From: Minisyncoccota bacterium
GTDB taxonomy: Bacteria > Patescibacteriota > Minisyncoccia > Phycocordibacterales > CALRHW01
Direction of reading: 5' to 3'
Length of the DNA: 64,000 nucleotides
Assembly: GCA_046350795.1 (NCBI GenBank)
Contig: JAXLZT010000001.1
Location: 484,705 to 548,704 of the forward strand
Of the stretch, positions 5,665-32,253 are shown piece after piece. Made by a program: the position numbers and the translations under genes. The notes beneath the pieces were generated by a model, which did not search any database, had not been told where the DNA came from, and was given only the letters and a program-made list of their open reading frames with translations. Numbering within the stretch: the stretch's first letter is position 1; each line of letters begins with the position of its first letter.

Positions 5665-5665
5665 T
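5657..5665 (+). promoter_or_regulatory. extended -10 promoter element (TGaTATAAT) for alaS, giving a leaderless or near-leaderless transcript
   Basis: TG-n-TATAAT ends 9 nt before the alaS ATG, and no Shine-Dalgarno is present. It lies within the 3-prime end of pepF. Confidence 0.4.
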
Positions 5666-5674
5666 ATTGCTTAT

Positions 5675-7489: not shown

Positions 7490-7516
7490 AACAAAGTAGA
7501 GTATAATAAATGCACG

Positions 7517-8710: not shown

Positions 8711-8732
8711 AAATTATTTATAATTTAGAATT

Positions 8733-10121
8733 ATGGCAAAGAAAATAGTACAAGACGTATTACCTCCAGAAAATAAAACAATCAGAAATATTCCAATATC
8801 AAGAAGACAGTCTACAATCACTCGATCAGTGCCACCCTCATCTTCTGCACGTCGAGACACTGTATCTCAAGATATTTTTGAGTCTAAACAGCTTGATAGT
8901 AGGCGACCAGAAAGAAAAAGAGAGCAACCTCAGACATATTCTAATGATTTTATTTCTCCACCAAAATTTACACAAAAAAGGAGTTTCTTTTCAAGAAAGG
9001 GTATTTGGGCCTCTTCATTTATATTTCTGATTTTATTAGCGTTTGCTACTTCATTTTTGTTTGTTAGTGCGAGCATCGAGGTGAGACCAAAAATAGAAAA
9101 AGCAAATCTAAGCATAGCTCTTTTGGCAAAAAAATCTCCACAAGCAGGTGAGCTTGGTTTTGATATTGTTACTATATCTAGGGAACTAGGTAAAAATGTA
9201 GAAGCTTCGGGTGAAGAAAAAATAGAAAAAAAAGCCTCCGGCAGAATAGTTATTTTTAATAAGTACAGCAAGTCATCTCAAAAGCTAGTAGCAAACACTC
9301 GTTTTGAAAACACAAAAGGTCAAATATATAGAATAGCTGAAGCTGTCACTATTCCTGGATATACTGTAAGTGGCGGTGAGACAGTACCTGGTAGTGTTAC
9401 TGTTACTGTGTATGCAGATCAACCAGGAGATTCATATAATTCTGGTTTGACAGATTTTACTATCCCAGGATTTAAGGGTGATCCTAGATTTAATACTATT
9501 TTCGCTAGATCTGATACTCCTATGCAGGGTGGTTTTTCCGGAATGATGAAAAAAGTCACTCCAGAACTACTTAAAAGTGCGGAAGCAGATCTAGAAACAA
9601 AACTAAAGGACCAACTTACGATAGAAGTAAAATCCCAGATCCCGGATGACTATATATTGTTTCCTGGAGCGGTTTCCTTTTCTTTTGAATCGTCTCCTCA
9701 AACAGAAGTATCAGATAATTCAGTAAAGGTGAATAGAAAGGGTACTATCGTCGGTATGATTTTTAATAAAGACCTACTCAACTCTCAGCTTGCAAAAAAC
9801 ACCCTTACACCAGCAGGATCGGGGGAAGTATATGTAGAAAATCTTGAAGAGCTTACCCTGGTTTTGCCAGAAGATGTAAAAATAGGTGGCAATATGGATA
9901 AAGACGTTTCCTTTACCCTAAAGGGTCCTGTAAAGTTTATTTGGACTTTTGACCAAAATAAGCTTAAGCAGGATTTAGCTGGAAAACCCAAGAAAAACCT
10001 AGGTTCTGTGCTTGCTTTATACCCAGCTATAGAAAAAGCAAAGGTAACCCTGAGACCTTTTTGGAAGTTTTCATTTCCAAAAAATATTGATAAAATAACG
10101 GTAAATATAAATACAAAATAA
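8733..10121 (+). CDS. hypothetical membrane-anchored protein
   Basis: A roughly 100-aa low-complexity basic N-terminus, one transmembrane helix (IWASSFIFLILLAFATSFLFV), then a large extracytoplasmic domain. Confidence 0.4.
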   Translation: MAKKIVQDVLPPENKTIRNIPISRRQSTITRSVPPSSSARRDTVSQDIFESKQLDSRRPERKREQPQTYSNDFISPPKFTQKRSFFSRKGIWASSFIFLILLAFATSFLFVSASIEVRPKIEKANLSIALLAKKSPQAGELGFDIVTISRELGKNVEASGEEKIEKKASGRIVIFNKYSKSSQKLVANTRFENTKGQIYRIAEAVTIPGYTVSGGETVPGSVTVTVYADQPGDSYNSGLTDFTIPGFKGDPRFNTIFARSDTPMQGGFSGMMKKVTPELLKSAEADLETKLKDQLTIEVKSQIPDDYILFPGAVSFSFESSPQTEVSDNSVKVNRKGTIVGMIFNKDLLNSQLAKNTLTPAGSGEVYVENLEELTLVLPEDVKIGGNMDKDVSFTLKGPVKFIWTFDQNKLKQDLAGKPKKNLGSVLALYPAIEKAKVTLRPFWKFSFPKNIDKITVNINTK

Positions 10122-10130
10122 TGAAGGTGG

Positions 10131-10158
10131 TTGACTAAATTCTATATTTTGTTAGTAT
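10131..10158 (+). promoter_or_regulatory. sigma70-type promoter (TTGACT-16-TAGTAT) for the infA-rpmJ-rpsM-rpsK-rpsD-rpoA-rplQ cluster
   Basis: Near-consensus -35 and -10 boxes with a 16-nt spacer, about 25 nt upstream of infA. Confidence 0.5.
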
Positions 10159-10180
10159 ATTTCGCATTGCCTATATTGTA

Positions 10181-10399
10181 ATGGATAAAATCAAAGAAAA
10201 GAGCCAGATTGTAGGAATTGTCACAGAAGCCTTGCCAAATACTTTTTTTAAAGTTAAATTGGAGGGCCAGGAAGAAGAGATACTTACATACCTCGCCGGT
10301 AAGATGCGACTTCATAGAATTCGCGTACTTATCGGAGATAAAGTGGCTGTGGAGCTTGACCAATACGGTGGTAAAGGTAGGATAGTAAAACGTTTATAA
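10181..10399 (+). CDS. infA: translation initiation factor IF-1
   Basis: S1-like fold sequence across all 72 aa. Confidence 0.95.
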
Positions 10400-10430
10400 A
10401 AAGGGTTAAAGGTAGGTAAATATTTACATA

Positions 10431-10547
10431 ATGCGAGTTAGAGCTTCAGTTAAAAAAATTTGTGCAAAATGTCAAACCGTTCGAAGGAAGGGTTATGTAT
10501 ACGTTGTGTGCAAAAGCAATCCTCGCCATAAGCAGAGACAAGGATAA
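10431..10547 (+). CDS. rpmJ: 50S ribosomal protein L36
   Basis: Hand translation gives [38 protein letters not shown] (38 aa, C-x2-C...C...H zinc ribbon). It is below the 60-aa cutoff of the ORF track. Confidence 0.95.
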
Positions 10548-10559
10548 TTTAAATAAAAT

Positions 10560-10940
10560 ATGAGAATTTTAGGTATTACAATTCCAGAAGGAAAGAGATT
10601 GGAGATAGGACTTACAACACTATATGGTATTGGACGTCCTTTGGCTCACAAGATTTTAGAAGAGGCAAAAATCGATTTTGGAAAAAAACCAAAGGATCTA
10701 TCAGTAGATGATGAAAATACTATCAGAAGTATTATTGAAAAATTTAAAATCGAAGGAGATCTAAAACGCGAAGTTGCTGGTAATATAAAGCGCCTAAAAG
10801 ATATCAAGGCATATAGAGGTACTCGTCACGCTCGAGGTCTACCTTCTCGGGGTCAGCGTACAAAGACCAATTCTCGTACTCGTCGAGGAAACGTACGAAA
10901 GACGATGGGAAGTGGTAAGCGTGCGGTAGAAAAGAAGTAA
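10560..10940 (+). CDS. rpsM: 30S ribosomal protein S13
   Basis: Full-length match to the S13 family. Confidence 0.95.
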   Translation: MRILGITIPEGKRLEIGLTTLYGIGRPLAHKILEEAKIDFGKKPKDLSVDDENTIRSIIEKFKIEGDLKREVAGNIKRLKDIKAYRGTRHARGLPSRGQRTKTNSRTRRGNVRKTMGSGKRAVEKK

Positions 10941-10951
10941 TAAAAATAAAA

Positions 10952-11383
10952 ATGGGAAAGAAAAGAATCGTAAAAAAGGGTGAGACTGAGACAGTAGATT
11001 CTGGAGAAAAAGCTCCAGTGGTTTCTTCTAAAAAGAAGATTGATACAGGAATTTTATTTGTTCAGTCTACATACAACAACACAAAAGTTGTTCTTACAGA
11101 TGTTAAAGGTAACACTCTTTGTTGGTCTTCTAGCGGTTCTCTAGGATTTAGAGGTGCAAAGAAAGGCACACCTTTTGCTGCTGCAAAAATAGGCGAGCTT
11201 ATTGGTACAAAAGCTGCGACTATGGGAGTAAAAGAAGTGGCTGTTGTGGTAAAAGGAGTGGGTTCTGGTCGAGAATCATCTATCAGAGGTTTTATTGCAA
11301 AAGGAATTAACATTTTATCAATAAAAGATGTGACTCCGGTGCCTCACAACGGCCCGAAGCCACCTAAGCCACGTCGAGTTTAA
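10952..11383 (+). CDS. rpsK: 30S ribosomal protein S11
   Basis: Full-length match to the S11 family. Confidence 0.95.
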   Translation: MGKKRIVKKGETETVDSGEKAPVVSSKKKIDTGILFVQSTYNNTKVVLTDVKGNTLCWSSSGSLGFRGAKKGTPFAAAKIGELIGTKAATMGVKEVAVVVKGVGSGRESSIRGFIAKGINILSIKDVTPVPHNGPKPPKPRRV

Positions 11384-11404
11384 ATAAATATTGATTTAAT
11401 TTTT

Positions 11405-12016
11405 ATGATCATAGGACCAAGATACAAAATAGCGCGCAGACTAGGAGCTCCTGTATTTGAGAAAACTCAAACACAGAAGTATGTCTTGTCTCAAACACGA
11501 AAATCAAAAAATGGTGCTCGTGGACCAAAACAGAAAACAGATTTTGGTATGCAGATGAATGAAAAGCAAAAAGCGAGATTTACATATTTGCTTAGTGAAA
11601 AACAATTTTCGAATTATGTTAAAAAAGCTATGTCTGCACAAGGTACAGACAATGTCGGCGCGCTTTTTGAACTACTTGAGCGACGCTTAGACAACGTAGT
11701 GCTTCGTGGTGGTTTTGGACACACACGTTTACTTGCTCGACAAATGGTTTCTCATAATCATATAAAAGTAAACGGACATATTGTAAATATTCCATCATTT
11801 AAAGTTTCAGTAGGGGATGTAATCACTATACGAGATGGAAGTGCAAAAAAACCTCTCTTCGCAGGTCTAGAAGAAAAACTTCAAGCAAAAACAGCTCCTT
11901 CTTGGCTCAAAGTAGATTCAGTAAAGAAACAGATAGAAGTACAGGGTATACCAAAGATGGATCAGGGAGAGCTTCTGTTTGATTTAAATTCCGTTATCGA
12001 ATTTTACAGCCGATAG
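11405..12016 (+). CDS. rpsD: 30S ribosomal protein S4
   Basis: S4 N-terminal and S4 domains. Confidence 0.95.
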   Translation: MIIGPRYKIARRLGAPVFEKTQTQKYVLSQTRKSKNGARGPKQKTDFGMQMNEKQKARFTYLLSEKQFSNYVKKAMSAQGTDNVGALFELLERRLDNVVLRGGFGHTRLLARQMVSHNHIKVNGHIVNIPSFKVSVGDVITIRDGSAKKPLFAGLEEKLQAKTAPSWLKVDSVKKQIEVQGIPKMDQGELLFDLNSVIEFYSR

Positions 12017-12079
12017 TAGATAGGGTTGCCAGATTCTAAAATTAATGTATAATTTACGAGTTAAATAATTTAAATCATT

Positions 12080-13036
12080 ATGGTCCATCACAGCATTGTA
12101 TTGCCTTCAAAGCCAAAGATCGTATCAGAAGATAAGTTTTCTGCTGTCTATGAAATAGACGGACTTTATCCAGGGTATGGTCACACTTTAGGCAACTCTC
12201 TACGTCGCATCATTCTTTCTTCTCTACCAGGTGCGGCTATCACTTCTGTAAAAATAAATGGCGTAAGTCATGAGTTTTCTGTATTAGAAGGAGTGAAGGA
12301 AGATGTTATAAACATCCTTTTAAATCTAAAAAAGGTGCGTATTGCTATGCACTCTGAAGAGCCTCAAACTCTTACTCTAAAAGTAAAGGGTGTACAGGAA
12401 GTAACAGCAAAAGATATAGAAGCTAGTGGTCAGGTGTCTATACTAAATCCTGATTTGGTTATCGCTCACATTACAGACAAAAATACTGAGCTTTCAATGG
12501 AGATAACTGTAGAAAAAGGACTTGGATATGTTTCAAAAGAAGTGATTCAAAAAAATCGTGTTGATATAGGCACTATCACTCTTGATGCAGTATTTTCTCC
12601 GATCAAAAAAGTAAGTTATGAAGTAGAAAATATGCGTGTTGGTGATCGTACAGATTTCAACAGACTTCGCATTTCTATAGAAACAGACGGAACAATGACT
12701 CCTCATGAAGCTCTAGAAAAGTCTATTGAAATAAGTATCAACCAATTGAAAGCTATCATTGGCTTCAAAGAAGAAGAGATGCCAGAATCTCCAAAGTCTG
12801 CTTCTGAAGAGTCAGAAGAAAAGAAAGAGATTGATCCAGAATTTTTGAAAACTCGTATTGAGTCTCTAAACCTTTCAGCGCGCACAATGAATGCTTTGAC
12901 TTCTGCAAATATTCGCACTGCAGGTGGTCTCGTGAGAAAGAAAGAAAAAGATATTGCAGAAATAGAAGGTCTTGGTACAAAGGGTGTACTTGAGATCAAG
13001 AAAGTATTGAAAGAATACGGCGTAACATTAAAGTAA
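12080..13036 (+). CDS. rpoA: DNA-directed RNA polymerase subunit alpha
   Basis: Alpha N-terminal domain and C-terminal domain sequence. Confidence 0.95.
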   Translation: MVHHSIVLPSKPKIVSEDKFSAVYEIDGLYPGYGHTLGNSLRRIILSSLPGAAITSVKINGVSHEFSVLEGVKEDVINILLNLKKVRIAMHSEEPQTLTLKVKGVQEVTAKDIEASGQVSILNPDLVIAHITDKNTELSMEITVEKGLGYVSKEVIQKNRVDIGTITLDAVFSPIKKVSYEVENMRVGDRTDFNRLRISIETDGTMTPHEALEKSIEISINQLKAIIGFKEEEMPESPKSASEESEEKKEIDPEFLKTRIESLNLSARTMNALTSANIRTAGGLVRKKEKDIAEIEGLGTKGVLEIKKVLKEYGVTLK

Positions 13037-13051
13037 GATTTAAATAATCCC

Positions 13052-13399
13052 ATGCGACATCACAGCTCAAAAAAGAAATTCGGTCTAAAAAGAAATCAGA
13101 GAAACGCTCTTGTTGCATCTCTCGCACTTTCTCTTATCCTTAATGAAAAAATAAAAACAACAGAAGTAAAAGCAAAGGCTTTGCGACCAGTTGTAGAAAA
13201 GTTAGTTTCAAAAGGAAAGACAAACTCTGTAGCTTCAAGAAGACTTCTTTCAGCTAGAGTTGGTGATGAGGGCGCAAAAAAGCTTGTAGATGTATTGGGT
13301 CCAAAGTATAAAGATAGAAAAGGTGGATACACAAGAATAGTAAAGCTAGGTACTCGTCCAAGTGACCGAGCATCTATGGCCGTTATCGAATTTGTATAA
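13052..13399 (+). CDS. rplQ: 50S ribosomal protein L17
   Basis: Match to the L17 family. Confidence 0.95.
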   Translation: MRHHSSKKKFGLKRNQRNALVASLALSLILNEKIKTTEVKAKALRPVVEKLVSKGKTNSVASRRLLSARVGDEGAKKLVDVLGPKYKDRKGGYTRIVKLGTRPSDRASMAVIEFV

Positions 13400-13404
13400 T
13401 ATTT

Positions 13405-13749
13405 ATGAAACACACAATAGACGCAACTGACAAAAGATTGGGAAGAGTAGCTAGTGAAGCTGCAAAGATTTTATCTGGAAAACAAACTACTCACTACGTA
13501 CGTAACGCTGTAGAGGGGGTGACTGTAAACATCATAAATGCTTCAAAGGTAAAAATTGATGTTAAGAAACTAAAAGAAAAAGAATATATTACTTATACTG
13601 GTTTTCCAGGAGGATTGAAAAATAAGACAGCCCTACAGCTTATGGCTAAAAAAGGTTACTCAGGTCTTTTTGTAGAAGCTGTATATGGTATGCTTCCGAT
13701 CAACAAGCTTCGAGCAAAAATAATAAAGAATCTAATCGTTACTGAATAA
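13405..13749 (+). CDS. rplM: 50S ribosomal protein L13
   Basis: Match to the L13 family. Confidence 0.95.
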   Translation: MKHTIDATDKRLGRVASEAAKILSGKQTTHYVRNAVEGVTVNIINASKVKIDVKKLKEKEYITYTGFPGGLKNKTALQLMAKKGYSGLFVEAVYGMLPINKLRAKIIKNLIVTE

Positions 13750-13750
13750 T

Positions 13751-14149
13751 ATGAATACAGAAAAATACATAGAAACAATTGGTAGACGAAAAACTTCTGT
13801 AGCTCGAGTCAGAATGACAGAAGCTTCAAAAAATACTATTGTCATAAACGACAAAGAGTACGATGTTTATTTCCCAACTACAGCATTGAGAATCGTAGGG
13901 AAAGAAGCTCTAGCGACATCAAAAACTCCAATAAAATTTAAAATTACTGCTGTTATAAAAGGCGGAGGTATTAGTTCTCAAGCTCAAGCTCTAAGACATG
14001 GTATTTCTCGTGGTCTTGTAGAGTTTGATGCTGAGCTACGAAAGAGTCTAAAATCTTCTGGTTTGCTAAAGCGAGATGCTCGTGCAAAAGAACGACGCAA
14101 ATTCGGTCTCAAGAAAGCTCGAAAGGCTCCTCAGTGGTCAAAGCGCTAG
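13751..14149 (+). CDS. rpsI: 30S ribosomal protein S9
   Basis: S9 family with the C-terminal KKxRKAPQ(W/F)SKR. Confidence 0.95.
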   Translation: MNTEKYIETIGRRKTSVARVRMTEASKNTIVINDKEYDVYFPTTALRIVGKEALATSKTPIKFKITAVIKGGGISSQAQALRHGISRGLVEFDAELRKSLKSSGLLKRDARAKERRKFGLKKARKAPQWSKR

Positions 14150-14152
14150 TTT

Positions 14153-14183
14153 TATAAAAAAATAGGACGGTCCGTGTGGACCG
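14153..14183 (-). terminator. intrinsic terminator for the minus-strand GC-rich small gene (CGGTCC-gtgt-GGACCG followed by a T8 tract on the minus strand)
   Basis: A perfect 6-bp GC stem with a 4-nt loop. The U-tract lies on the minus strand only, with an A-tract on the plus side. Confidence 0.6.
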
Positions 14184-14215
14184 CCCTTGGTTGTGGCTTC
14201 TTCCGACTTGTCAGC

Positions 14216-14377
14216 TCACAGCCAGATCGGCTGCGGGAGCTTGGGGCTGGAGATGATGCGACCCAAGTAGACCTTGACGTGAAGCGTCTTGGACGACTTG
14301 CGTCCCTTGTCATCGAAGTGGTGGACGACCACTTCCGCCTTCGTTCTCGTCTTGTTCTTGCTGATGATCTTGACCAT
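14216..14377 (-). CDS. hypothetical small basic protein (53 aa) in GC-rich cassette A
   Basis: Hand translation gives MVKIISKNKTRTKAEVVVHHFDDKGRKSSKTLHVKVYLGRIISSPKLPQPIWL. GGGG Shine-Dalgarno 6 nt upstream. Codons end in G/C (aag, gtc, atc, ctc), unlike the neighbours. The unit has its own promoter and terminator. The ORF track only showed the longer overlapping frames at 14152..14481 (-) and 14174..14407 (+), which look non-coding. Confidence 0.5.
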   Translation of the reverse strand: MVKIISKNKTRTKAEVVVHHFDDKGRKSSKTLHVKVYLGRIISSPKLPQPIWL

Positions 14378-14410
14378 TTCGGACCCCTTTCAGAAGTGTA
14401 CGAATGACAT

Positions 14411-14429
14411 GTGACTGAACACCAGTCAC
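14411..14429. promoter_or_regulatory. perfect inverted repeat GTGACTG-N5-CAGTCAC at the 5-prime end of the cassette-A transcript, upstream of grpE
   Basis: A 7-bp perfect palindromic arm pair lying between the cassette-A -10 box and its Shine-Dalgarno, and roughly 100 nt upstream of grpE. Confidence 0.45.
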
Positions 14430-14435
14430 AATACA

Positions 14436-14463
14436 AGTATAACATGTATATATATTTTGTCAA
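14436..14463 (-). promoter_or_regulatory. sigma70-type promoter TTGACA-16-TATACT (minus strand) for cassette A
   Basis: Consensus -35 box with 5/6 match in the -10 box and a 16-nt spacer. Confidence 0.55.
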
Positions 14464-14533
14464 GTAGAACGAATAACTCAATTTTGCCTATAATATTGAA
14501 ACCATGGTCGTGTTTTGATAACATACTGTTGTT

Positions 14534-15115
14534 ATGAAGGATAAAAATCTATCTAAAAACGAAAACGAAGAGCAAATGGACGAAGAAATCGTTTTTGAAA
14601 ATGATGCTGAATTTGCAGAAAAAGATCCAAAGCAATCTCTCGACAAACTCCGTAAAAAATTAAAAGAAACAGAAGCAGAAAAACAAGAATACCTAGACGG
14701 ATGGCAGAGAGCCAAAGCTGATTTCATAAATTCACGCAAAAGAGACGCAGATCTCCAAGCTGATATAATAAAATTCGCAAACGAAAATTTAATTTCAGAT
14801 ATCATTCCAGTCCTCGACAGCTTTGATATGGCGATGCAAAACAAAGAAGCTTGGGAAAAGGCACCAAAAGATTGGAGAGTCGGAGTCGAGTATATTTACA
14901 ATCAACTTTTAGGAGTACTCACTCAAAATGGATTAAAACAATTCAACCCAATAGGGCAAAATTTTGATCCAAAACTCCATGAAGCCGTCGACACAATAGA
15001 AACGAATGATTCAGGTGAAGATGGGAAAATTTTGGAGGTTTTGCAAAAAGGTTATAGTCTTAATGAAAAGCAAATACGTTCGGCAAAAGTAAAAACCGGT
15101 AAATTTGTAGGATAA
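14534..15115 (+). CDS. grpE: nucleotide exchange factor GrpE
   Basis: GrpE coiled-coil and beta domain; operon context with dnaK-dnaJ. Confidence 0.9.
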
Positions 15116-21950: not shown

Positions 21951-23087
21951 ATGGCAGACAAATACAAGTCAGGAACGCATAAGCAACATGAGGGCTACAA
22001 GAGCTTTCAGCCATCTTTGGTTAATAAGAGTTTTGAGTGGACAGACAAGCGTATTGATGTCCTTCTTGCTGATGCCATGAGATATCTCGGCGAGCTCAAC
22101 GCTTTTTCAAAGTTGGTCCCTGACGTGGATTTTTTCATAAAAATGCACATCGCAAAAGAAGCTACTACCTCAAGCAAAATTGAGGGTACACAGACAAAAC
22201 TCGATGAGGCACTTCTCCCTGAACTTGAAATTGATCCAGAAAAAAGAAACGACTGGGAAGAAGTTCAGAACTATGTAAAAGCCATCAACTACTCAATTGC
22301 AGAACTTGAAAGGCTACCCCTATCAATACGGCTTGCAAGAGATACGCATAAAGTTTTACTTTCTAGTGTTCGTGGATATACAAAACTTCCAGGAGAAGTT
22401 CGCCGAAGCCAGAACTGGATCGGTGGTGCAACCCTCAAAGATGCGGTATTTATTCCACCTCACCATGAAGAAGTTGGTGAACTCTTGAGTGATCTTGAAA
22501 GGTTTTGGCACAACAAAGAGGTTGATATTCCAGATCTTATAAAGATCGCCATCTCGCACTATCAATTCGAAACCATCCACCCATTCCTCGATGGTAATGG
22601 TCGTATTGGTCGACTGCTCATTACTCTTCACTTGGTGAGCCTTGGTATTCTTCAGAAGCCAACACTCTACATCTCAGATTTCTTCGAAAAGCATCGTCCG
22701 CAATATTACGATGGTCTTTCGCGTGTTCGCGAAACGAACGACATTGAGCACTGGTTGAGATTCTTTCTTACTGGTGTGCTTGAGACCGCAAAGAATTCAA
22801 GACAGACACTCGAGAAGATTATTGACCTTAGAAAGAAGTACGAAACAACAATCGAAAAAGGCATGGGCATCAAACGCCAAAAGCTTGGTAAGGAACTTTT
22901 GCGTTGCTTGTTCTCACAGCCAGTTGTAACGATTCGAGACATCGAGTCAATGCTCTCGGTGACATTCCCGACAGCGTCTGCAATAACAAAAGATTTTGTT
23001 AAGCTGGGTTTGTTCTCAGAGAAGACTGGGCTTAAGAAGGATCGAATCTTCTACCTTACCGAATACATTAATCTCTTTAATAAATAA
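21951..23087 (+). CDS. fic: Fic family protein (AMPylase/adenylyltransferase), class II with an N-terminal inhibitory motif
   Basis: Canonical [12 protein letters not shown] Fic motif. An upstream SSKIEG matches the [ST]xxxE[GN] inhibitory-helix motif. Confidence 0.85.
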
Positions 23088-23095
23088 TAAACATC

Positions 23096-25012
23096 ATGGA
23101 AAATTTCAACCAAAAAACATCAATGATCTGGAGTATAGCCGACATCTTACGTGGTGGCTGGAAACAGCATGAATACCAGGATGTGATATTGCCTTTGGTG
23201 GTTTTGAAGCGCCTCGATTCTATCCTTGCCGACACTAAAGCTTCGGTCCTCGAGAAATACAATGAGTATAAAGGCAAAGTGAATGACCTTGATCCTATCC
23301 TCAAGAAAACTTCAGGGACAGCCTTCTACAATATCTCTGATTACGATTTCAAAACTATTCTTGGAGAGCCAAAGCATCTCGCAAAGAACTTCAAGCAGTA
23401 CATTAACGGGTACAGCAAGAATATCCAGGACATCTTTGAGAAGTTTGATTTCAGCAAACAGCTCGAGCGTCTCGAAGGTGGTGATCTCTTGTTTTACGTG
23501 ATTCAGGAATTGAATAAAGTTGATTTGCACCCTTCAAAGGTAGACAACTATCAAATGGGACACATCTTTGAAGAACTTCTCCGAAAGTTTTCTGAAATGT
23601 CCAACGAAACCGCTGGAGAGCACTACACCCCACGAGACGTGATCGGACTTATGACCGAGATGCTCTTCTCGCCTGATAAGAAGGACCTCAAGAAACCTCA
23701 CGTTATAAAAAAGATTTATGACCCTGCCTGTGGTACAGGTGGCATGCTTTCTGTTGCTAAGGATTACATTCTCGAAAACATAAATAAAGAAGCTGACATT
23801 TTCCTTTACGGCCAAGAACTTAACTCGGTGACGTATGCAATGGCTAAGTCAGACATGCTTATCAAGGGTGATAATCCTGATCTAATTCGAGGTGGTGAAA
23901 AGGACCATTCAAAAGCAAGTACACTCGCCAACGATCAATTCTTTGCAGAAGTATTTGACTACGGACTAAGTAATCCACCCTACGGAGTTGATTGGAAGAA
24001 GGATAAGGATGCTGTAGAGCGTGAAGCATCTCGTGGATACGCTGGTAGGTTTGGTGCAGGAACTCCTCGCATTTCTGATGGACAACTTTTGTTCCTACAG
24101 CATCTCATTTCAAAGATGAAACCTGAAAAAGATGGCGGCTCACGTATTGCGATCGTTCACAACGGGTCCCCACTATTTACCGGTGATGCTGGTAGCGGAG
24201 AAAGTGAAATCCGCCGATGGATTCTTGAAAAGGATCTGCTCGAAGCAATCGTCGCATTGCCTGATCAGCTTTTCTATAACACAGGAATTAATACATACCT
24301 TTGGTTTATCACCAACAGAAAATCAAAAGAAAGAAAAAGTAAGGTTCAGCTTATTGATGCTCGCACCCTCTTCAAGAAAACTCGCAAGAGTCTTGGTAGT
24401 AAGCGACATGAGATTGACACTGAACACAAAAAACAAATTTTGGATCTGTACGAGAAATTTGAAGAAAATGAATACTCAAAGATTTTCAAGACAACAGACT
24501 TTGCATACAGACAGATCACCATTGAGCGCCCTCTCCGCCTCAAGCTTGATTTCACTCCAGAGAAAATAAAGGAGATTACCGAAACTCTTGATCCAAGCGC
24601 TATTAAAGCTGGCGTAAAGACACTCATAGAATCTTTTGAGAATCAGATATATATGAGCAAGAAGGTATTCGAAGAAGCTTTTGATAAAAGGGTTGAACAG
24701 TATGTATCAGGCAAGCTTACCGCCGCACTCTACAAAAAAATTATTTCTACCTTTAGCGAAAGTGATCCAGAGGCGGACATTGTACTTGATAAGAATGGCG
24801 ACCCAGAGGCCGACACGTCTTTGCGTGATTTTGAGAATGTTCCGTATGAGATGGATATCAAAGAATATTTTGATAAAGAGGTAAAGCCATACGTGCCTGA
24901 TGCTTGGATCAATGAATCAGTCCGAGATCACAAAGACGGTAAGGTTGGTATCGTGGGCTACGAGATTCCATTCACTCGCCACTTCTACAAGTACGAAGCC
25001 CACGAAGCTTAG
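23096..25012 (+). CDS. hsdM: type I restriction-modification system methyltransferase subunit HsdM
   Basis: N6-adenine methyltransferase motif IV NPPYG (LSNPPYGVDW); HsdM N-terminal and C-terminal regions. Confidence 0.9.
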   Translation: MENFNQKTSMIWSIADILRGGWKQHEYQDVILPLVVLKRLDSILADTKASVLEKYNEYKGKVNDLDPILKKTSGTAFYNISDYDFKTILGEPKHLAKNFKQYINGYSKNIQDIFEKFDFSKQLERLEGGDLLFYVIQELNKVDLHPSKVDNYQMGHIFEELLRKFSEMSNETAGEHYTPRDVIGLMTEMLFSPDKKDLKKPHVIKKIYDPACGTGGMLSVAKDYILENINKEADIFLYGQELNSVTYAMAKSDMLIKGDNPDLIRGGEKDHSKASTLANDQFFAEVFDYGLSNPPYGVDWKKDKDAVEREASRGYAGRFGAGTPRISDGQLLFLQHLISKMKPEKDGGSRIAIVHNGSPLFTGDAGSGESEIRRWILEKDLLEAIVALPDQLFYNTGINTYLWFITNRKSKERKSKVQLIDARTLFKKTRKSLGSKRHEIDTEHKKQILDLYEKFEENEYSKIFKTTDFAYRQITIERPLRLKLDFTPEKIKEITETLDPSAIKAGVKTLIESFENQIYMSKKVFEEAFDKRVEQYVSGKLTAALYKKIISTFSESDPEADIVLDKNGDPEADTSLRDFENVPYEMDIKEYFDKEVKPYVPDAWINESVRDHKDGKVGIVGYEIPFTRHFYKYEAHEA

Positions 25013-25082
25013 AGGAAATAGAGATTGATATAGAAAAGAGTCGAGAATGAATTGCTCACTCTCCTAAAGCAACTATAAACAT

Positions 25083-25409
25083 ATGGCTGACATTAAACTG
25101 CCACAATTAAATAACAAAGAAGAAGTTCTTACTTTCCTAAAGGAAGCGCCTGTCCAACTTGCAGAAGTTGTTACTGGAATTCTCGGATCTGAATCTACCG
25201 AATGGAAGATGTCTGCTGGCCGCATTATCCAAAGTGCGTTAAAAGGTAATCTTCTAACATGCCTTGGCAATGAACTAAAAAAGTATAAAGACAAAGGTGA
25301 AATTAAAGATGATTTCCTTGCAACAGATGCGACCAGAATGGCTTTAAATGAGATCTTAAAGATGATCGATGGTAATGATATTCGGATGAGATTAAATTTC
25401 GTGCAATAA
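25083..25409 (+). CDS. hypothetical protein (108 aa) between hsdM and hsdS
   Basis: ORF only; AT-rich. It may be the 5-prime half of a gene disrupted before the next ORF. Confidence 0.3.
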   Translation: MADIKLPQLNNKEEVLTFLKEAPVQLAEVVTGILGSESTEWKMSAGRIIQSALKGNLLTCLGNELKKYKDKGEIKDDFLATDATRMALNEILKMIDGNDIRMRLNFVQ

Positions 25410-25461
25410 AATCAATTTTTATAAGTGGTATCAATACTAATTCAACAAACGAAGATGAGTT

Positions 25462-25818
25462 TTGGCATACGAATTTTTACGCACTGCTGTAGGTGTTTCT
25501 GGTACTGAAGTTTTGATACTTAAAGCAAATTTCGCAATAGCAAACAAGCAATATGTAAATGATGTTGGAATATTGATTGAAAAAAATGCTTCTCCACACT
25601 CTAGACAAGGATGGGCAAATATAGTTTCAAAACAAATGGGCCTACAAGGGTTTAATACTCTTGTGAGTAAGTATGAAGAAAATCTTGAAAAGCTTGGACT
25701 CATTTCTCCAAGAAATTATGACAACCGATTTTCAAGTGAATTTATTCCAACAAATAAGTTTCGTCTAAGTGAGATGGGTTATAAATTCTGCCAGTTCATG
25801 ACTAAATATGAGAAATAA
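25462..25818 (+). CDS. hypothetical protein (118 aa), TTG start, overlapping the hsdS start by 11 nt
   Basis: The ORF lies in a different frame from the previous one, 53 nt downstream. It has a weak TTG start and no clear Shine-Dalgarno. Confidence 0.3.
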   Translation: MAYEFLRTAVGVSGTEVLILKANFAIANKQYVNDVGILIEKNASPHSRQGWANIVSKQMGLQGFNTLVSKYEENLEKLGLISPRNYDNRFSSEFIPTNKFRLSEMGYKFCQFMTKYEK

Positions 25819-27133
25819 TATGCAAACACTCAAACTTACAAAGAAATATGAAAAGTACCCTGAATATAAAGATTCAGGGGTTGAGTGGTTTGGAAAAGTT
25901 CCGAAAGACTGGCAAGTTGGACCGCTTAGATCTGTATTAGTTGAGAGAGTAGAGAAAAACAAAAAACTCGTAACTGACAATATTCTTTCAGTAATGAAAG
26001 ATGTTGGTGTAATTAGGTACGCGGATAAGGGTGATGTTGGCAATAAGAGTTCTGATCGGCCTGAGAATTATAAGATAGTTCACGCTGGAGACATTGTCTT
26101 AAACAGTATGAATCTTGTAATTGGTTCTGTGGGACAATCAAAAGAGCTTGGTGTTACAAGTTCTGTATATATTATTTACTATCCAAGAAACAAAGAAATA
26201 TTTGCTGATTATTACCATTACTTATTTAGAAATAAATCGTGGCAAAAAACCTTAGGGAGACTTGGTAAAGGAATAATGGAATTGAGAGAATCCATAAATT
26301 CAGATCTCCTAAAGATAGAGCCGGTTCCTATACCTCCCTTTAATCAACAGAAAGCAATAGTAGCCTTTCTTGATAAAAAAACTTCTTATATTGATCGAAT
26401 CATCGAGAACAAACAAAAATTAATTGAGCTTTTGCGTGAGAAACGCACATCGGTTATTAATAATGCCGTTACAATAGGTCTTACTCAGAAAGTTGAGCTT
26501 GTTGAAAGTGGTATTGCTTGGATTGGGAAGATGCCAAAGGGATGGAGATTAGACAAGATCAAGAGAGTTGCTCTTATAAATAAAAAGACTCTATCAGAAA
26601 ATACTAACCCTAATTTTTCCTTCAAATATTTTGATATTGGATCGGTTGATGAAGAAGAAGTGTCTAATGTTGAAAGTGAAATAACTTTTGAAAAAGCACC
26701 GAGCCGAGCAAGAAGAATTGTTAGTGTTGGAGACTCAATAATTGCCACCGTCAGAACATATCTCAAAGCAATCGCTTACTTCGATAAGTTAGATACTGAT
26801 ACAGTAGCTTCTACTGGTTTTGCTGTCTTAACCCCCAAAAAAGAATTGATTCCAAAATATCTTTTTTATTATCTACAATCAGATAGATTCATTAACCAAG
26901 TAATCATTAAGTCAAAAGGTATAGGCTATCCGGCAATTACACCTTTTGATCTTGGTTCTTTAGAAATAATCTACCCTGATAAAAACATCCAACAATCAAT
27001 TGTTACCTATCTTGATGAAAGTGTAAATAAATATAATTCAATTATTGAAAAAGCCGAAAAATCAATAAATCTTTTAAGCGAGTTTAAGTCTTCACTGATA
27101 TCAAGTGTGGTAACAGGAAAAATTAAAGTATAA
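25808..27133 (+). CDS. hsdS: type I restriction-modification system specificity subunit HsdS
   Basis: Two target-recognition domains separated by conserved central and C-terminal helical repeats (LxxKRxxLI...) typical of HsdS. Confidence 0.85.
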   Translation: MRNNMQTLKLTKKYEKYPEYKDSGVEWFGKVPKDWQVGPLRSVLVERVEKNKKLVTDNILSVMKDVGVIRYADKGDVGNKSSDRPENYKIVHAGDIVLNSMNLVIGSVGQSKELGVTSSVYIIYYPRNKEIFADYYHYLFRNKSWQKTLGRLGKGIMELRESINSDLLKIEPVPIPPFNQQKAIVAFLDKKTSYIDRIIENKQKLIELLREKRTSVINNAVTIGLTQKVELVESGIAWIGKMPKGWRLDKIKRVALINKKTLSENTNPNFSFKYFDIGSVDEEEVSNVESEITFEKAPSRARRIVSVGDSIIATVRTYLKAIAYFDKLDTDTVASTGFAVLTPKKELIPKYLFYYLQSDRFINQVIIKSKGIGYPAITPFDLGSLEIIYPDKNIQQSIVTYLDESVNKYNSIIEKAEKSINLLSEFKSSLISSVVTGKIKV

Positions 27134-27137
27134 ATAT

Positions 27138-28379
27138 ATGTTCGGACCAACTTTTGACGATTATTATAGAAAAGCTATCGAGATGTTCAATCAAGACATC
27201 TTGAGGGAGTCTGATGAGCAAATTTTAGGATCAGAAATAGATGATCTTGCAAATTTCTATTGTCAGAAATATGCCCTGGTCCCATTAGTATTCGATCCAG
27301 CAGATTTATCGTATGAAATGAAAAAAGAGGTTCGTCGAGTACCCGCTCATCAGCGTGATGAATTTTATCGATACCAGGGTGATACAGAATTTGAATATGA
27401 ATCCGCAGTGCTTTCTTTTCCTATTCAAGCTAATCCAAATTTAGACTGGTTGAAAAAGTTATCGGGGCCAGTGCATCATATGGATGGATTTGACCAAAGA
27501 GTAGTATACGGTCCCAGTGAGATTTCTTATTCCTTTGATGTTAAGTGGTATGGTGGCCATTCAAGCGAAGATAGTATTGCGAACGAAATTAATACAAAAT
27601 CACAAAGAATCATTGAGAGTCTAAACCAAAAGAACTCTAGTATTGAATCTGGCAATGCAGCACTTCTGAGAACAATCAAAGATGGAATCACTAAACGCAA
27701 AGAAAAATTATTAAGTGATAAGGAGAAATTGAGCACGCTTACTCAGAAAATAAAAATACCTCTAAAACAAAAAACTAATCCCTCTGCTACGAAGATTCAA
27801 GTAGATGTTAAAAAGTTTGTCCATGTTGTAAAGCCAACACCTAAATTACCAGCAGAATATACGCTTGAGGAATCGATCCTGAAAGATATTTTGGGATTTG
27901 TTGATAATCAATGCAGAACATTTGAGAGAACTCCTGGTGCTTATAAGCAATTAGGAGAAGAGCAACTTCGTGATGTAATCCTTTCTGCGCTAAATGGTAT
28001 TTTTGAAGGCAATGCTACTGGAGAAACTTTCGTCAAAAAAGGAAAAACTGATATACATCTTAAAATTGAGAAAGGAGAAATTTTGATTTTTGAATGTAAA
28101 AACTGGGATGGAGAAAAGATATATCTAGAGACCATAGACCAATTGATGGGATACGTTACCTGGAGACAAAACTATGGCGTTGTGATCATGTTTTCGAAAA
28201 ATAAAGATTTTTCAAAAATACTAGCTCAAATACCAGACATTATTCAAAAGCATACGCAATATAAATCAGGATTCAAACAGTTAAACAGCAACCATTTTGT
28301 ATCCGACCACACTCTTCCCGAGGATTCTGGTAAGACAATAAAGGTACATCACTTGATATATAACATTTACAGCGAATAA
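27138..28379 (+). CDS. hypothetical protein with a C-terminal PD-(D/E)xK nuclease-like core, in the hsdS-hsdR slot (candidate abortive-infection or defence effector)
   Basis: C-terminal ...KTDIHLKIEKGEILIFECKNWDGE...QLMGY gives D-x14-E-C-K in a beta-strand context. No P-loop is present. It is tightly packed between hsdS and hsdR with a 1-nt gap. Confidence 0.45.
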   Translation: MFGPTFDDYYRKAIEMFNQDILRESDEQILGSEIDDLANFYCQKYALVPLVFDPADLSYEMKKEVRRVPAHQRDEFYRYQGDTEFEYESAVLSFPIQANPNLDWLKKLSGPVHHMDGFDQRVVYGPSEISYSFDVKWYGGHSSEDSIANEINTKSQRIIESLNQKNSSIESGNAALLRTIKDGITKRKEKLLSDKEKLSTLTQKIKIPLKQKTNPSATKIQVDVKKFVHVVKPTPKLPAEYTLEESILKDILGFVDNQCRTFERTPGAYKQLGEEQLRDVILSALNGIFEGNATGETFVKKGKTDIHLKIEKGEILIFECKNWDGEKIYLETIDQLMGYVTWRQNYGVVIMFSKNKDFSKILAQIPDIIQKHTQYKSGFKQLNSNHFVSDHTLPEDSGKTIKVHHLIYNIYSE

Positions 28380-28380
28380 T

Positions 28381-31350
28381 ATGACAACAAAAACAAACAC
28401 AAAAGAATCAGGATTTGAAGAATTTATTGAGCAAGAGCTCAAGTGTCTTCATTCATACCGAACCCGATCAACCTCTTCATATAACAAAGAGCTTTGTATG
28501 GATACCGAGTTGGTCCTCGAGTTTATTCATACAACACAGAAAGATAGTTGGGATAAATTAGTTGAACAATATGGTGGCGATGTTGCCAATCGATTCTTGG
28601 CTAGACTAGATGAAGAGCTTCTTTCTCGTGGTCTTTTGAGCGTACTTCGTGAGGGTGTGAGAGATCGTGGTGTTACGATTAAGCTCGCATATTTCAAACC
28701 TGAAAACGATAGAAACCCCGAGACACTTGCCGACTACGCAGGGAATATCTTGAGCGTAATGCGCCAGGTCAAATATAGTGCCAAGAACGAGAACTCTATC
28801 GACATGGTTATCTTTGTAAATGGTCTTCCTCTCTTTACCGCTGAACTCAAGAATCAATTCACTGGACAGAATGTTATCAATGCAATTTCACAATACAGAA
28901 CTGATCGTGATCAGAAAGAAAAGTTGCTTGGATTTAAGAGATGCCTCACACACTTTGCGGTGGATACCGAACAGGCATACATGACCACTCGCCTCACAGG
29001 GCTTACTACCTACTTCCTACCATTCAACAAAGGTAACAATGGATCATCAGGTAATCCCGATGCACCAAAAGGAAAATATAAAACTCATTATCTCTGGGAA
29101 GAAATCTGGGCAAAGTATAGTATCTTTGATTTGATCGGAAATTTTATACAGGATGTGACCGAAGAGAAAGAGGATAAGAACGGTAAAAAGCAAAAGGTGG
29201 AGAAAGTTATCTTCCCTCGATACCACCAGCTTGAGACAGTAAAGAGAATCGTAGAAGATGCCAAAGCCAATGGTGCAGGTAAAAACTATTTGATTCAGCA
29301 CAGTGCAGGGTCCGGAAAGAGTAATACTATCGCATGGACAGCGCACAGACTTGCCGAACTTCATGCTGTTGAAGGAAAGAATGTATTTGACGGAGTAATT
29401 GTTGTAACTGATCGACGAGTGCTTGATAGACAGCTTTCAGATACCGTTAAAAGCTTTAGCCAGGTAACTGGTCTAGTTAAGCATGTAGAAAATGGTGGTA
29501 AAGAGCTTAAAGAATCACTCGAATCAGGAGTGAAAATCATTACAACAACCTTGCAGAAGTTTCCAGTTATCGTTGATGCCATAGAAAAAGTTGAGGGTAG
29601 AAAGTTTGCCGTAATCATTGATGAGGCGCACTCATCACAATCAGGAGAATCGGCGGCCGATTTGCGACAGGTCCTCACACTTGATGAAGCTGAAAAAGAA
29701 AGTCAGGAAGAAGAGAAAGCATTTAAGACAATTGAAGATCAGATCGTTGAGCGTATGAAGGCGCGAAAAGTTGCGTCTCCAAATTTGTCATTCTTTGCCT
29801 TTACAGCTACTCCAAAGCAAAAGACTCTTGAATTATTCGGTACGGAAGACGTGGTGACTGGTAAATTCGGTCCTTTTTCACTGTACTCGATGAAGCAAGC
29901 CATTGAAGAAAAATTCATTCTTGATGTGCTTAAGAATTACACAACCTACGAAACCTACTTCGGACTTTTGAAGAAAGTAGAAGATGACCCTGAGTTCGAC
30001 AAGAAAAAGGCTCAGCGACTTATGGTTGGATATGTTGAGCGACATGAGCATGCTATTGATAAAAAGGTGGCTATTATGGTTGAACACTTCGAGGAAAAGA
30101 TCGCCTCGCTTATTAATGGCAAGGCAAAAGCTATGGTGGTGACCAAGTCTCGACTCCATGCGGTCCGTTATAAGATTGCATTTGATAAGTATCTTAAAGA
30201 AAAAGGATACACACACAAAGCGTTGGTAGCTTTCTCTGGAACAGTTAAGGATGTTGATACCAAACTTGAATACACCGAAGGTCAGATGAATAAGGTTCCT
30301 GAAAGTCAGACTGCCGAGGAATTCAAAAATGATGATTACAAGTTTCTGATCGTAGCCGAGAAGTTCCAGACTGGATTCGACCAGCCACTATTGTCGGTAA
30401 TGTATGTAGATAAGAAACTTGGTGGTGTTGGTGCGGTCCAGACTTTGTCTCGACTTAATCGAACCACATACAACAAAGAAGAAACCTTTGTTCTTGATTT
30501 CGTAAACCAGACTGATGATATCAAGGATGCCTTCCAACCTTACTACACAACTACTGTTCTCTCAGAAGCGACAGATCCAAACATCCTGCATGATCTTGAG
30601 CGAGATGTGCGTGGGTTTAAGTTCTTCACTGATTTTGAGGTTAATGGCTTTATCGATGAACTCTATTCAAGAGCAACTCCTGACAAGCTCAATTATATTA
30701 TCGACGGCGTAGTCTCTCGCATCAACGAAGAAAACCTTACTGAAGAAGAAATGGAGAGTTTCAAGTCTACGGTATTTGATTATCTCAAGAAGTACGCATT
30801 CATCTCACAGATTGTAACCTTCGAAGATCCTCAGCTGGAAAAGTTGTTCATATTCTTGAAGTATTTGATTAGAAAGCTTCCTAAGCGTGAAAACCCACTA
30901 CCATATGAGGTCCTTCAGGCAATAGATATGGAAACATACCGAGTGGAAAAGAAAGGTGAAATGCATCTTCAACTCGAAAATGCTGAAGGCCTTATTGAGC
31001 CTATGGGCGGTGGCGATTCAAAGAGTCAAACCGAAGAAGAGAAAGATGCACTGTCTCGAATTATTAAGGAAGTAAATGAAAGATATGGAACCAACTTCAA
31101 TGATGGTGACCGAGTGATCCTTAATGATTTGAGTAAGCGACTACTTGAAAGCGAGATCCTTCAGGGTTCAGTGATGAACAACAGCAAAGATGCCGCTAAG
31201 TTGAAATTTGATCAACTCTTCCAGGACGAGCTCGTGAGCGTGCTTGATAAGCACTTTAGCTTGTATCAAAAGTTGGACCAGAGTCCAGAGCTCAAGAAGT
31301 TCGTGCAAGAACGAGTGTTCGAATTTGTGGTTAAGAAAATGAAAAAATAA
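28381..31350 (+). CDS. hsdR: type I restriction enzyme R subunit HsdR
   Basis: Walker A (SAGSGKSNT) and DEAH-like (VIIDEAHSS) helicase motifs; 989 aa with an HsdR N-terminal nuclease region. Confidence 0.9.
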   Translation: MTTKTNTKESGFEEFIEQELKCLHSYRTRSTSSYNKELCMDTELVLEFIHTTQKDSWDKLVEQYGGDVANRFLARLDEELLSRGLLSVLREGVRDRGVTIKLAYFKPENDRNPETLADYAGNILSVMRQVKYSAKNENSIDMVIFVNGLPLFTAELKNQFTGQNVINAISQYRTDRDQKEKLLGFKRCLTHFAVDTEQAYMTTRLTGLTTYFLPFNKGNNGSSGNPDAPKGKYKTHYLWEEIWAKYSIFDLIGNFIQDVTEEKEDKNGKKQKVEKVIFPRYHQLETVKRIVEDAKANGAGKNYLIQHSAGSGKSNTIAWTAHRLAELHAVEGKNVFDGVIVVTDRRVLDRQLSDTVKSFSQVTGLVKHVENGGKELKESLESGVKIITTTLQKFPVIVDAIEKVEGRKFAVIIDEAHSSQSGESAADLRQVLTLDEAEKESQEEEKAFKTIEDQIVERMKARKVASPNLSFFAFTATPKQKTLELFGTEDVVTGKFGPFSLYSMKQAIEEKFILDVLKNYTTYETYFGLLKKVEDDPEFDKKKAQRLMVGYVERHEHAIDKKVAIMVEHFEEKIASLINGKAKAMVVTKSRLHAVRYKIAFDKYLKEKGYTHKALVAFSGTVKDVDTKLEYTEGQMNKVPESQTAEEFKNDDYKFLIVAEKFQTGFDQPLLSVMYVDKKLGGVGAVQTLSRLNRTTYNKEETFVLDFVNQTDDIKDAFQPYYTTTVLSEATDPNILHDLERDVRGFKFFTDFEVNGFIDELYSRATPDKLNYIIDGVVSRINEENLTEEEMESFKSTVFDYLKKYAFISQIVTFEDPQLEKLFIFLKYLIRKLPKRENPLPYEVLQAIDMETYRVEKKGEMHLQLENAEGLIEPMGGGDSKSQTEEEKDALSRIIKEVNERYGTNFNDGDRVILNDLSKRLLESEILQGSVMNNSKDAAKLKFDQLFQDELVSVLDKHFSLYQKLDQSPELKKFVQERVFEFVVKKMKK

Positions 31351-31358
31351 TCTTATTT

Positions 31359-31835
31359 ATGAAAAAACTGACAGAAGAATTTGTTCAGAAACAAGTAGAA
31401 AAATATCTGCATGATAAGGGTTGGAATCACAACCTTAAATCAAAGGGCTTGCGTGAACATGGCTGCGATATTGTGGTATCAGATGGTAATAATAAATACA
31501 AAGCGCGCCGATTTTTCATAGAATGTAAGGGTCGATCTTACTCAAAACACGCTCGTTCAATTGCAGATACAAATATGCTGTATGGTTTAGGTCAATTGGT
31601 AACTAGAATGAAGGTGATAGCTAAACATGCTTACAAATATGGTTTGGCTCTTCCGAAGGAAAGTGCAGACATTGCACTCCGTAGGATACCGTGGCAAGTT
31701 GCACGTCAACTCTGTTTAAGTATTTTTTCAATAGACGATTCTGGTATAGTTACAGAATATTCACCAAAAGATTTTAAAAAATTTAATAAAAAACAACCCT
31801 CAAGCACGCGTAATCACAAATACCGGTGTAGGTAA
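31359..31835 (+). CDS. small PD-(D/E)xK-fold protein, YraN/UPF0102-like
   Basis: HGCDIVVSDGNN...FFIECKGR matches the D...ExK core and resembles the GEIDLI...VEVKxR block of YraN-type endonucleases. It has a C-terminal extension. Confidence 0.35.
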   Translation: MKKLTEEFVQKQVEKYLHDKGWNHNLKSKGLREHGCDIVVSDGNNKYKARRFFIECKGRSYSKHARSIADTNMLYGLGQLVTRMKVIAKHAYKYGLALPKESADIALRRIPWQVARQLCLSIFSIDDSGIVTEYSPKDFKKFNKKQPSSTRNHKYRCR

Positions 31836-32253
31836 AAAGCTAGATGAGATAGGTCTGCCGTACGAGATTGTAGAGGGTCGAGCAAATACTGATATAAATG
31901 GTGTGACTATAGAAGCGTTTGATGGAAAACATGAAGAGATTTTCCTCGAGATTGGTCAGGTGCAAAATACTGGATATTTTATAGACAACACACTCTTCTA
32001 TCCCGGTGACTCTTTTCACAATCCAGAAAAGCCAGTGGATATACTCGCTCTTCCTGTAGCTGGCCCGTGGTGTAAAATCTCTGATGCAATCAGATATGCT
32101 CTCGCAGTAAAGCCAAAGAAAGCTTTTCCTGTGCATGATGGAATATTGCAAAAAGATCGCATAGGTAGCTCTCACAAAGTACCTGAAAAAGTACTTGCCG
32201 AAAACGGCATTGAGTTTGTGATTATGAATGAGGGGGATGAGATGATACTGTAG
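31750..32253 (+). pseudogene. 5-prime-truncated remnant of an MBL-fold metallo-hydrolase gene
   Basis: The open frame (from 31750; GTG at 31903) encodes only a C-terminal MBL-fold half (...DILALPVAGPW...KKAFPVHDG...). The N-terminal HxHxDH region is missing, and the upstream part overlaps the preceding ORF out of frame. Confidence 0.45.

Follow-up and report, generated by a model that had tools for sequence, protein, structure and literature searches.

PrrC, which joins an ABC-type NTPase to a ribonuclease module and cleaves tRNA(Lys) (PMC3025547), is described in a survey by Payne, Hughes, Fineran and Jackson (bioRxiv 10.1101/2024.01.29.577857) as 'almost exclusively' embedded in type I restriction-modification (R-M) operons. 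The same survey reports 145 'phage defence candidates' (PDCs) found by 'guilt-by-embedding' and added to PADLOC, each defined by its location inside a BREX, DISARM or type I R-M operon, and describes the junction between hsdS and hsdR (the S-R junction) of type I operons as a host of unrelated cargo. Here we analyse a gene at that junction in a 64,000-nucleotide (nt) stretch from a Minisyncoccota bacterium (assembly GCA_046350795.1, contig JAXLZT010000001.1, positions 484,705 to 548,704; hereafter 'the window'). This gene, which we call gene X (27138-28379, + strand, 413 amino acids (aa)), is a member of the PADLOC family PDC-S54 whose product has a predicted PD-(D/E)xK nuclease domain at its C terminus, and our favoured reading is that it would act as an autonomous single-gene nuclease that nests in R-M operons as well as in other islands.

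Gene X lies in the same place between hsdS and hsdR as PrrC and RloC, where it would be co-expressed with the R-M genes, and it may follow the same broad principle, that of a nuclease effector kept latent. It differs in having no P-loop ABC NTPase, the N-terminal domain being modelled by AlphaFold2 as a three-stranded alpha/beta unit followed by a long helix, and in ending in a PD-(D/E)xK domain with no anticodon ribonuclease module. It differs also in distribution: the family is near hsd genes at 15 of 80 loci and adjacent to or embedded in them at 10, whereas PrrC is nearly always embedded. The first-pass annotation of the window had described a 413-aa open reading frame (ORF) separated from its neighbours by 4 and 1 nt, and reading the ORF and its junctions bears this out. 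The TAA of hsdS (27131-27133) is followed by ATAT and then by the ATG of gene X at 27138, while the TAA of gene X (28377-28379) is followed by a single T before the ATG of hsdR at 28381. The identities of the two flanking genes are likewise confirmed by Pfam: hsdS (25808-27133, + strand, 441 aa) directly 5' of gene X matches Methylase_S in two stretches, and hsdR (28381-31350, + strand, 989 aa) directly 3' matches HSDR_N, SWI2_SNF2, ResIII and a T1R_D3-like domain. Compared with its three same-slot orthologues (L001-L003; L-numbers denote individual loci throughout), gene X has a ratio of nonsynonymous to synonymous divergence (dN/dS) of 0.03-0.04 at dS up to 1.6. Gene X is therefore under strong purifying selection; it is functional, and the lineage of the window has kept it in the hsdS-hsdR slot for a long time.

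It is important to note that the protein is not, as first described, an unknown one. A search of PADLOC-DB v2 matched gene X to one model, PDC-S54 (PDLC05036; E 3e-85, 285 bits), over its full length (residues 6-411 on profile positions 13-407 of 410), and therefore gene X is not new as a family. The same model was matched by all 41 of a diverse set of homologues, none of which matched any other defence model; the PADLOC Shedu, Hachiman and PrrC models in particular gave no match among the 41, even with PrrC tried at E up to 5. PDC-S54 is a single-gene candidate, and gene X thus adds one member to a candidate family that had been catalogued before and is known by label only. The published resource consists of a hidden Markov model and that candidate label; the architecture, fold, catalytic residues and distribution are worked out here. 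The nesting of gene X in a type I R-M operon is the very situation that defined PDCs, and embedded copies, on one strand with the hsd genes, are found in the window and at L002, L003, L036, L045, L009, L007, L027, L054 and L059. The earlier suggestion of a defence role from embedding is hence the same argument as that behind PADLOC PDC-S54 and made by Payne et al. (2024), and the links of homologues to R-M and defence islands that it presupposed are indeed seen.

A database search returned 187 homologues, nearly all of ~410 aa and labelled 'hypothetical', from which alignments of 41 and 101 sequences were drawn. The C-terminal domain (residues 245-413; 27870-28376, + strand) contains the peptide GKTDIHLKIEKGEILIFECKNWDGEKIYLETIDQLMGY (residues 302-339), which carries the motif D305-x13-E319-x-K321 with Q335 downstream. 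The first-pass annotation had pointed to this motif and to the Gln, both of which stand, and had given the spacing as x14, which is corrected here to x13. In both alignments E263, E274, R278, N286, E296, D305, C320, Q335 and the TW of TWRxNYG are invariant, and E319 and K321 are conserved at 90% or more; the signature from E274 to Q335 spans 27957-28142 (+ strand), every catalytic position being invariant or at least 90% conserved across the 101 sequences. The corresponding codons lie at 27957-27959 (E274), 28023-28025 (E296), 28050-28052 (D305), 28092-28094 (E319), 28098-28100 (K321) and 28140-28142 (Q335). An AlphaFold2 model built with the 101-sequence alignment (mean predicted local distance difference test (pLDDT) score 84) places these residues in the order alpha(274-289)-beta(293-299)-beta(302-309)-beta(315-322)-alpha(326-339)-beta(346-353), the alpha-beta-beta-beta-alpha-beta core of the PD-(D/E)xK superfamily, with D305 on the second strand, E319 and K321 on the third and Q335 on the following helix. 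Because the modelled layout is canonical and the motif residues are conserved, the assignment of the C-terminal part as a PD-(D/E)xK (restriction-endonuclease-fold) domain with a full conserved catalytic signature is well supported, in agreement with the strand-strand-helix context and restriction-endonuclease fold proposed earlier.

The domain nevertheless stands apart from the described members of this superfamily: it forms a PD-(D/E)xK family of its own, to which no solved structure is close. Foldseek gave no structural match at E 1e-3 or better; the best matches were the type II enzymes OkrAI, BamHI, BstYI and BglII, together with McrC and MspJI, and gene X shares 8-12% identity with enzymes of the BamHI/OkrAI/BstYI type while differing from them by ~245 additional N-terminal residues. 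Pfam and NCBIfam gave no match to the gene X protein, the 101 members searched against Pfam at E up to 5 gave NERD, Hjc, NucS_C and Mrr_cat_2 only (all sub-threshold), the family profile against Protein Data Bank sequences returned coiled-coil noise only, and PHROGs returned only weak matches to families of unknown function. Kinship with Shedu (DUF4263) or Mrr, raised in the first-pass annotation, was not borne out: none of the members searched matches DUF4263 or the PADLOC SduA model, a weak Mrr_cat_2 match (E 0.03) occurs in 2 of the 101 members only, and the N-terminal domain shows no winged-helix resemblance. The family does resemble Shedu in its logic, since both are single genes with a variable N-terminal domain, a conserved C-terminal PD-(D/E)xK nuclease domain and a patchy, island-associated distribution, so that the two are parallel in logic and not in sequence.

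Upstream of the nuclease domain, the model resolves an alpha/beta subdomain of three helices and a three-stranded sheet (residues 1-143; 27138-27566), a single helix of ~60 residues (144-204; 27567-27749; assigned by DSSP on two AlphaFold2 models, pLDDT >90) and a linker predicted to be disordered (205-244; 27750-27869), all on the + strand. The first is a putative sensor or regulatory module and the second a putative coiled-coil or oligomerisation element. The linker has pLDDT <50 at residues 205-229 and 237-242, and nonetheless retains across the family the motifs KIxIPLK... and VKPxPxLPEEYxL, with P233 invariant; because it is predicted to be disordered yet is conserved in sequence, it suggests a docking or autoinhibitory peptide. 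The earlier statements that the protein has no P-loop and that its N-terminal part has no recognisable motif both hold: its two GK[ST] sites (302-304 and 399-401) lack the [AG]x4 context, the sequence contains no Walker A motif and matches no ABC or AAA family in Pfam, and the N-terminal part matches nothing in Pfam or NCBIfam.

Conservation is unevenly spread over this architecture. Distant members share 54% identity in the C-terminal domain as against 31% in the N-terminal domain, and columns conserved at 90% or more number 51 of 169 in the former and 6 of 143 in the latter. The full architecture is seen in 101 of the 146 best representatives; another 19 carry the C-terminal part behind an unmatched N-terminus, and ~18 lack the N-terminal part altogether, many of these being proteins of ~285 aa in which the long helix follows almost directly on the start. 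Because the short forms keep the helix and the C-terminal part and the N-terminus varies, the constant unit of the family is helix, linker and nuclease domain, while the N-terminal alpha/beta subdomain is an add-on that can be exchanged. Pfam gave one match only on the members with a different N-terminus, to thioredoxin, in what is probably a gene-fusion call. A profile of the N-terminal domain searched for fusions to other effectors returned two fragments and missed known full-length members.

The genomic context of the family was surveyed at 80 genome loci, with ORFs called up to 10 kb to each side. Genes of type I systems were sought with iterated profiles of the Hsd proteins of the window; HsdR neighbours were taken from BLAST clustering, and 'HsdR' labels given by the iterated profile to gene X homologues were disregarded (a chimeric ORF from L031 was in the profile). 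Type I R-M genes occur within 10 kb at 15 of the 80 loci and are lacking from that range at the other 65, and at 10 loci, 3 of them near-identical relatives of the window, the hsd genes are on the same strand and adjacent to, or embedding, the homologue. By our own rough estimate, about 1% of random genes would lie within 10 kb of a type I system; against it, 19% of loci near type I R-M amounts to a strong enrichment, while ~80% of loci do without. The embedded copies fall at no fewer than eight separate positions of a neighbour-joining tree, each with non-embedded sisters, and their place in the operon varies: S-X-R in the window clade, S-X-242aa-R in L036, S-Fic-X-103aa-R in L045, S-X-HTH-R (HTH, helix-turn-helix) in L009, R-X-M-S in L027, M-S-R-X followed by a Gabija-like pair in L059, and R-S-M-DUF4357-X in L054. 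Embedded and standalone proteins have the same architecture, with no extra region for docking on the R-M enzyme. When the three nearest genes to either side of the homologue were clustered all against all, there emerged no conserved partner gene and no conserved link to any single recombinase or replication gene; the recurrent neighbours were HsdR (8 loci) and HsdM (7 loci).

Other neighbours point in the direction of defence islands and mobile elements. Large serine recombinases of 450-550 aa, with Resolvase, Recombinase and Zn_ribbon_recom domains, adjoin the homologue or lie within two to three genes of it at L003, L005, L012, L014, L016 and L030, which suggests carriage on integrative elements. 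Neighbours seen at single loci include the retron Ec67 reverse transcriptase, Mrr_cat, AAA_21, SLFN_AlbA_2, nSTAND1, AbiEi_2, SIR2_2 and a PglW-like kinase. In Bacteroidota (L015, L019, L020, L029 and L033) the homologue is convergent with a conserved three-gene cassette downstream on the opposite strand, encoding DUF6527 (~145 aa), a ThiF/E1-like protein with DUF6791 (~394 aa) and a ~232-aa protein, which looks like a candidate defence operon of the ubiquitin-like conjugation type. The L059 locus (4224-14825, a Leucobacter metagenome-assembled genome (MAG)) is a compact defence island in which hsdM-hsdS-hsdR-X is followed by a Gabija-like pair, an AAA_21/OLD-TOPRIM protein of 647 aa and a UvrD helicase of 556 aa. 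Fic genes lie within 10 kb at 6 of the 80 loci, among them directly upstream of the homologue in Mucilaginibacter loci without R-M (L019/L020, 8883-9926) and, again directly upstream, inside an Opitutaceae R-M operon (L045, 8791-9549).

Two further arrangements were considered and rejected. Small ORFs downstream of the homologue (L006, L010, L045 and L056) might have been the second gene of a two-gene system, and these proved mutually unrelated. At L007 the homologue might have complemented a nuclease-less HsdR, and a true HsdR fragment is present 3' of it.

The family is at once large and thinly spread. A profile search over 1.84 billion cluster representatives (clusters at 50% identity) yielded 3,435 clusters with an E-value cut-off of 1e-3 and 1,640 with one of 1e-30, and relatives were found in 271 of ~185,000 genomes, one genome being scanned per species. 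The hosts include Saccharibacteria, other candidate-phyla bacteria, Bacteroidota, Pseudomonadota, Bacillota, Chloroflexota, Planctomycetota, Cyanobacteria and archaea, and the closest relatives of the gene X protein are in three Candidatus Saccharibacteria MAGs (91-95% aa identity). Homologues occur on 21 plasmids and in two phage records; one of the phage copies belongs to a temperate Heliusvirales phage, where it adjoins transposase and invertase genes at the accessory end. Phage PV036449.1 (L082) has a DNA invertase near its gene X homologue. The family is rare, patchy and sited in variable regions.

We hypothesize that the PD-(D/E)xK domain of gene X performs metal-dependent DNA cleavage, that the ~60-residue helix mediates oligomerisation, and that the N-terminal domain, the linker or both hold the nuclease in check until a cue related to infection or invasion is received. 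Gene X would then be defence cargo that repeatedly lands in type I R-M slots, defence islands, integrative elements, plasmids and occasionally phages, and that works without need of the R-M enzyme; in the window it would share a transcript with hsdS and hsdR, probably with coupled translation as well, and so be expressed together with the R-M enzyme. Autonomy is favoured because 65 of the 80 loci have no hsd genes within 10 kb, because the embedded copies fall at eight or more tree positions and at varied positions in their operons, and because no conserved partner was found. We place the probability of an autonomous single-gene nuclease at about 0.55, a figure held down because we infer the anti-phage function.

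Several observations weigh against this reading. Gene X is fixed in the hsdS-hsdR slot in four genomes of the Saccharibacteria clade while two other slots changed cargo; such stability, at dS values reaching 1.6, is in keeping with a functional link between gene X and the R-M enzyme in this one lineage. One homologue lies among housekeeping genes of the ftsA/ftsZ type, and some have no defence neighbour. The string 'PDC-S54' was found in no paper text searched, nor was an experiment on any family member found. The seven confirmed systems in the available text of the preprint (bioRxiv 10.1101/2024.01.29.577857) are Hma-embedded candidates, with no tests of PDCs among them, and of eight PDC/HEC candidates tested heterologously elsewhere, S54 not among them, 4 of 8 protected (PMC12881386).

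It is possible, but doubtful, that gene X is instead a solitary restriction enzyme of type IV or type II-like character, in which the N-terminal domain would read a DNA feature (a modified base, a sequence or a structure) and the C-terminal domain would cut foreign DNA directly, with no cell suicide involved. Such enzymes typically place their PD-(D/E)xK domain at the C terminus, behind a reader domain; the best structural matches named above are to restriction enzymes, Mrr-type genes are often found beside hsd operons, and the homologues are mostly standalone, with no conserved methyltransferase neighbour except hsdM in the embedded minority, which also sets the family apart from type II R-M. 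The putative reader is, however, dispensable in the ~285-aa short forms, and the family yields no Mrr_cat match above threshold.

A closer parallel to PrrC, in which gene X, at least where it is embedded, would stay latent on HsdMSR until an anti-restriction factor from a phage puts the R-M enzyme out of action, and would then be set loose as a suicidal nuclease, seems to us unlikely. The precedent of PrrC itself (PMC3025547), the location of gene X in the prrC slot with gaps of 4 and 1 nt, the S-X-(..)-R order, which recurs independently in four clades (that of the window and those of L036, L045 and L009), and the retention of gene X in the Saccharibacteria-clade genomes whose other slots turn over all speak for it. 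Yet the first-pass annotation had proposed just such an effector, licensed or silenced by the R-M complex and putatively acting by abortive infection, and its licensing or silencing by that complex is not supported by the wider family: ~80% of loci have no type I R-M within 10 kb, as against the near-exclusive embedding of PrrC; elsewhere the embedded copy follows R, follows M or separates the two; the embedded proteins have no docking region that the standalone ones lack; neither the ABC NTPase nor the ribonuclease module of PrrC is present; and unrelated cargo of many kinds also lands at the S-R junction. It is tempting to speculate that in the embedded lineages gene X has become a DNase counterpart of PrrC, docked on Hsd through the linker (P233) or through a secretion-chaperone-like N-terminal domain and firing upon anti-restriction attack, and we consider this improbable.

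Similarly improbable is that gene X serves the mobile elements or phages that carry it, whether by maintaining the element through addiction, by acting as a weapon against competitors or by processing the DNA of integrative elements. The large serine recombinases at 6 loci, the 21 plasmids and 2 phage records, and the presence of the whole cassette at different chromosomal sites in relatives would fit such a role; but defence genes ride the same types of element, so that this context does not discriminate, no link to one recombinase or replication gene is conserved, and gene X is nested inside an R-M operon and not at an element end. Least credible of all is a catalytically dead or otherwise non-nuclease use of the fold, or a housekeeping repair or resolvase enzyme, as might be read from the name 'Holliday junction resolvase' that one database source gives to a homologue fragment and from the weak Hjc and NucS_C matches, given that these matches are far below threshold (E about 0.1), that all catalytic positions are invariant or nearly so, and that a gene present in 271 of ~185,000 species genomes is rare and patchy and lies in variable regions.

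In the window, gene X is part of a cassette that extends from 21951 to 31835, with every gene on the + strand and very short gaps, in the order Fic, hsdM, two short ORFs, hsdS, gene X, hsdR and a 158-aa ORF. At its head is a Fic/DOC-family gene (21951-23087; Pfam Fic_N and Fic), which holds the same place in L002 and L003, followed by hsdM (23096-25012, 638 aa; HsdM_N and N6_Mtase). A scan for promoters and terminators gave no signal above shuffled expectation inside the operon, and an Rfam scan of the window found no RNA families. The two short ORFs (108 and 118 aa) at the hsdM-hsdS junction (25083-25818) together look like a single broken Abi_alpha-like gene of ~730 bp, or ~240 aa (PF14337, E 0.013 in the second half), with frameshifts near 25385 and 25460 and a third reading frame that bridges the two (…SDEIKFRAIKSIFISGINTNSTNEDEFWH…). 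The same junction is empty in L002 and holds a DUF2130 gene in L003; because its content thus differs among the three, it is a second cargo slot, occupied in the window by a gene that is decaying or ridden with sequencing errors. The 158-aa ORF (31359-31835) begins 8 nt after hsdR and has weak similarity to NOV_C/Mrr_cat (E 0.002-0.02) with a D-x16-E-C-K motif (DIVV…FIECKG), so judged from its sequence it may be a second small PD-(D/E)xK protein; in L002 this slot is filled by an unrelated 247-aa protein with HARE-HTH and Hjc-like parts.

The cassette itself appears to have moved. In the window it lies between aspS and scpA/scpB, and because aspS, scpA, scpB and mraY, which flank it there, do not flank it in L002 or L003, close relatives carry the Fic-hsdM-hsdS-X-hsdR block at different chromosomal sites. 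The G+C content of 22000-32000 is 0.35-0.40, against 0.44-0.46 in the adjacent 18-22 kb and 32-34 kb, and this low G+C together with the differing insertion site is consistent with horizontal acquisition of the cassette. In another MAG (L031, 10001-10782), a fragment of X (corresponding to window 27900-28240, 84% nt identity) is fused to an internal portion of hsdR (window 30129-30575), and this chimera appears to be a deletion remnant of a cassette of the window type.

Current concepts are left unchanged by these findings, since it has already been described that type I R-M operons host nested defence genes. What is added to a bare PADLOC label is an architecture, a set of catalytic residues, context statistics and a clear choice between an autonomous and an R-M-guarding role, for a family that is large (thousands of clusters, in bacteria, candidate-phyla lineages, archaea, plasmids and some phages) and yet has no Pfam domain. 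If a DNase counterpart of PrrC were nonetheless the true reading, type I restriction would have a second 'guard', unrelated to PrrC and directed at DNA in place of tRNA. In either case, the window presents a stacked defence cassette in an ultra-small genome, comprising Fic, type I R-M, a decayed Abi-like gene, gene X and a small nuclease-like ORF, and this bears on the defence of reduced episymbionts.

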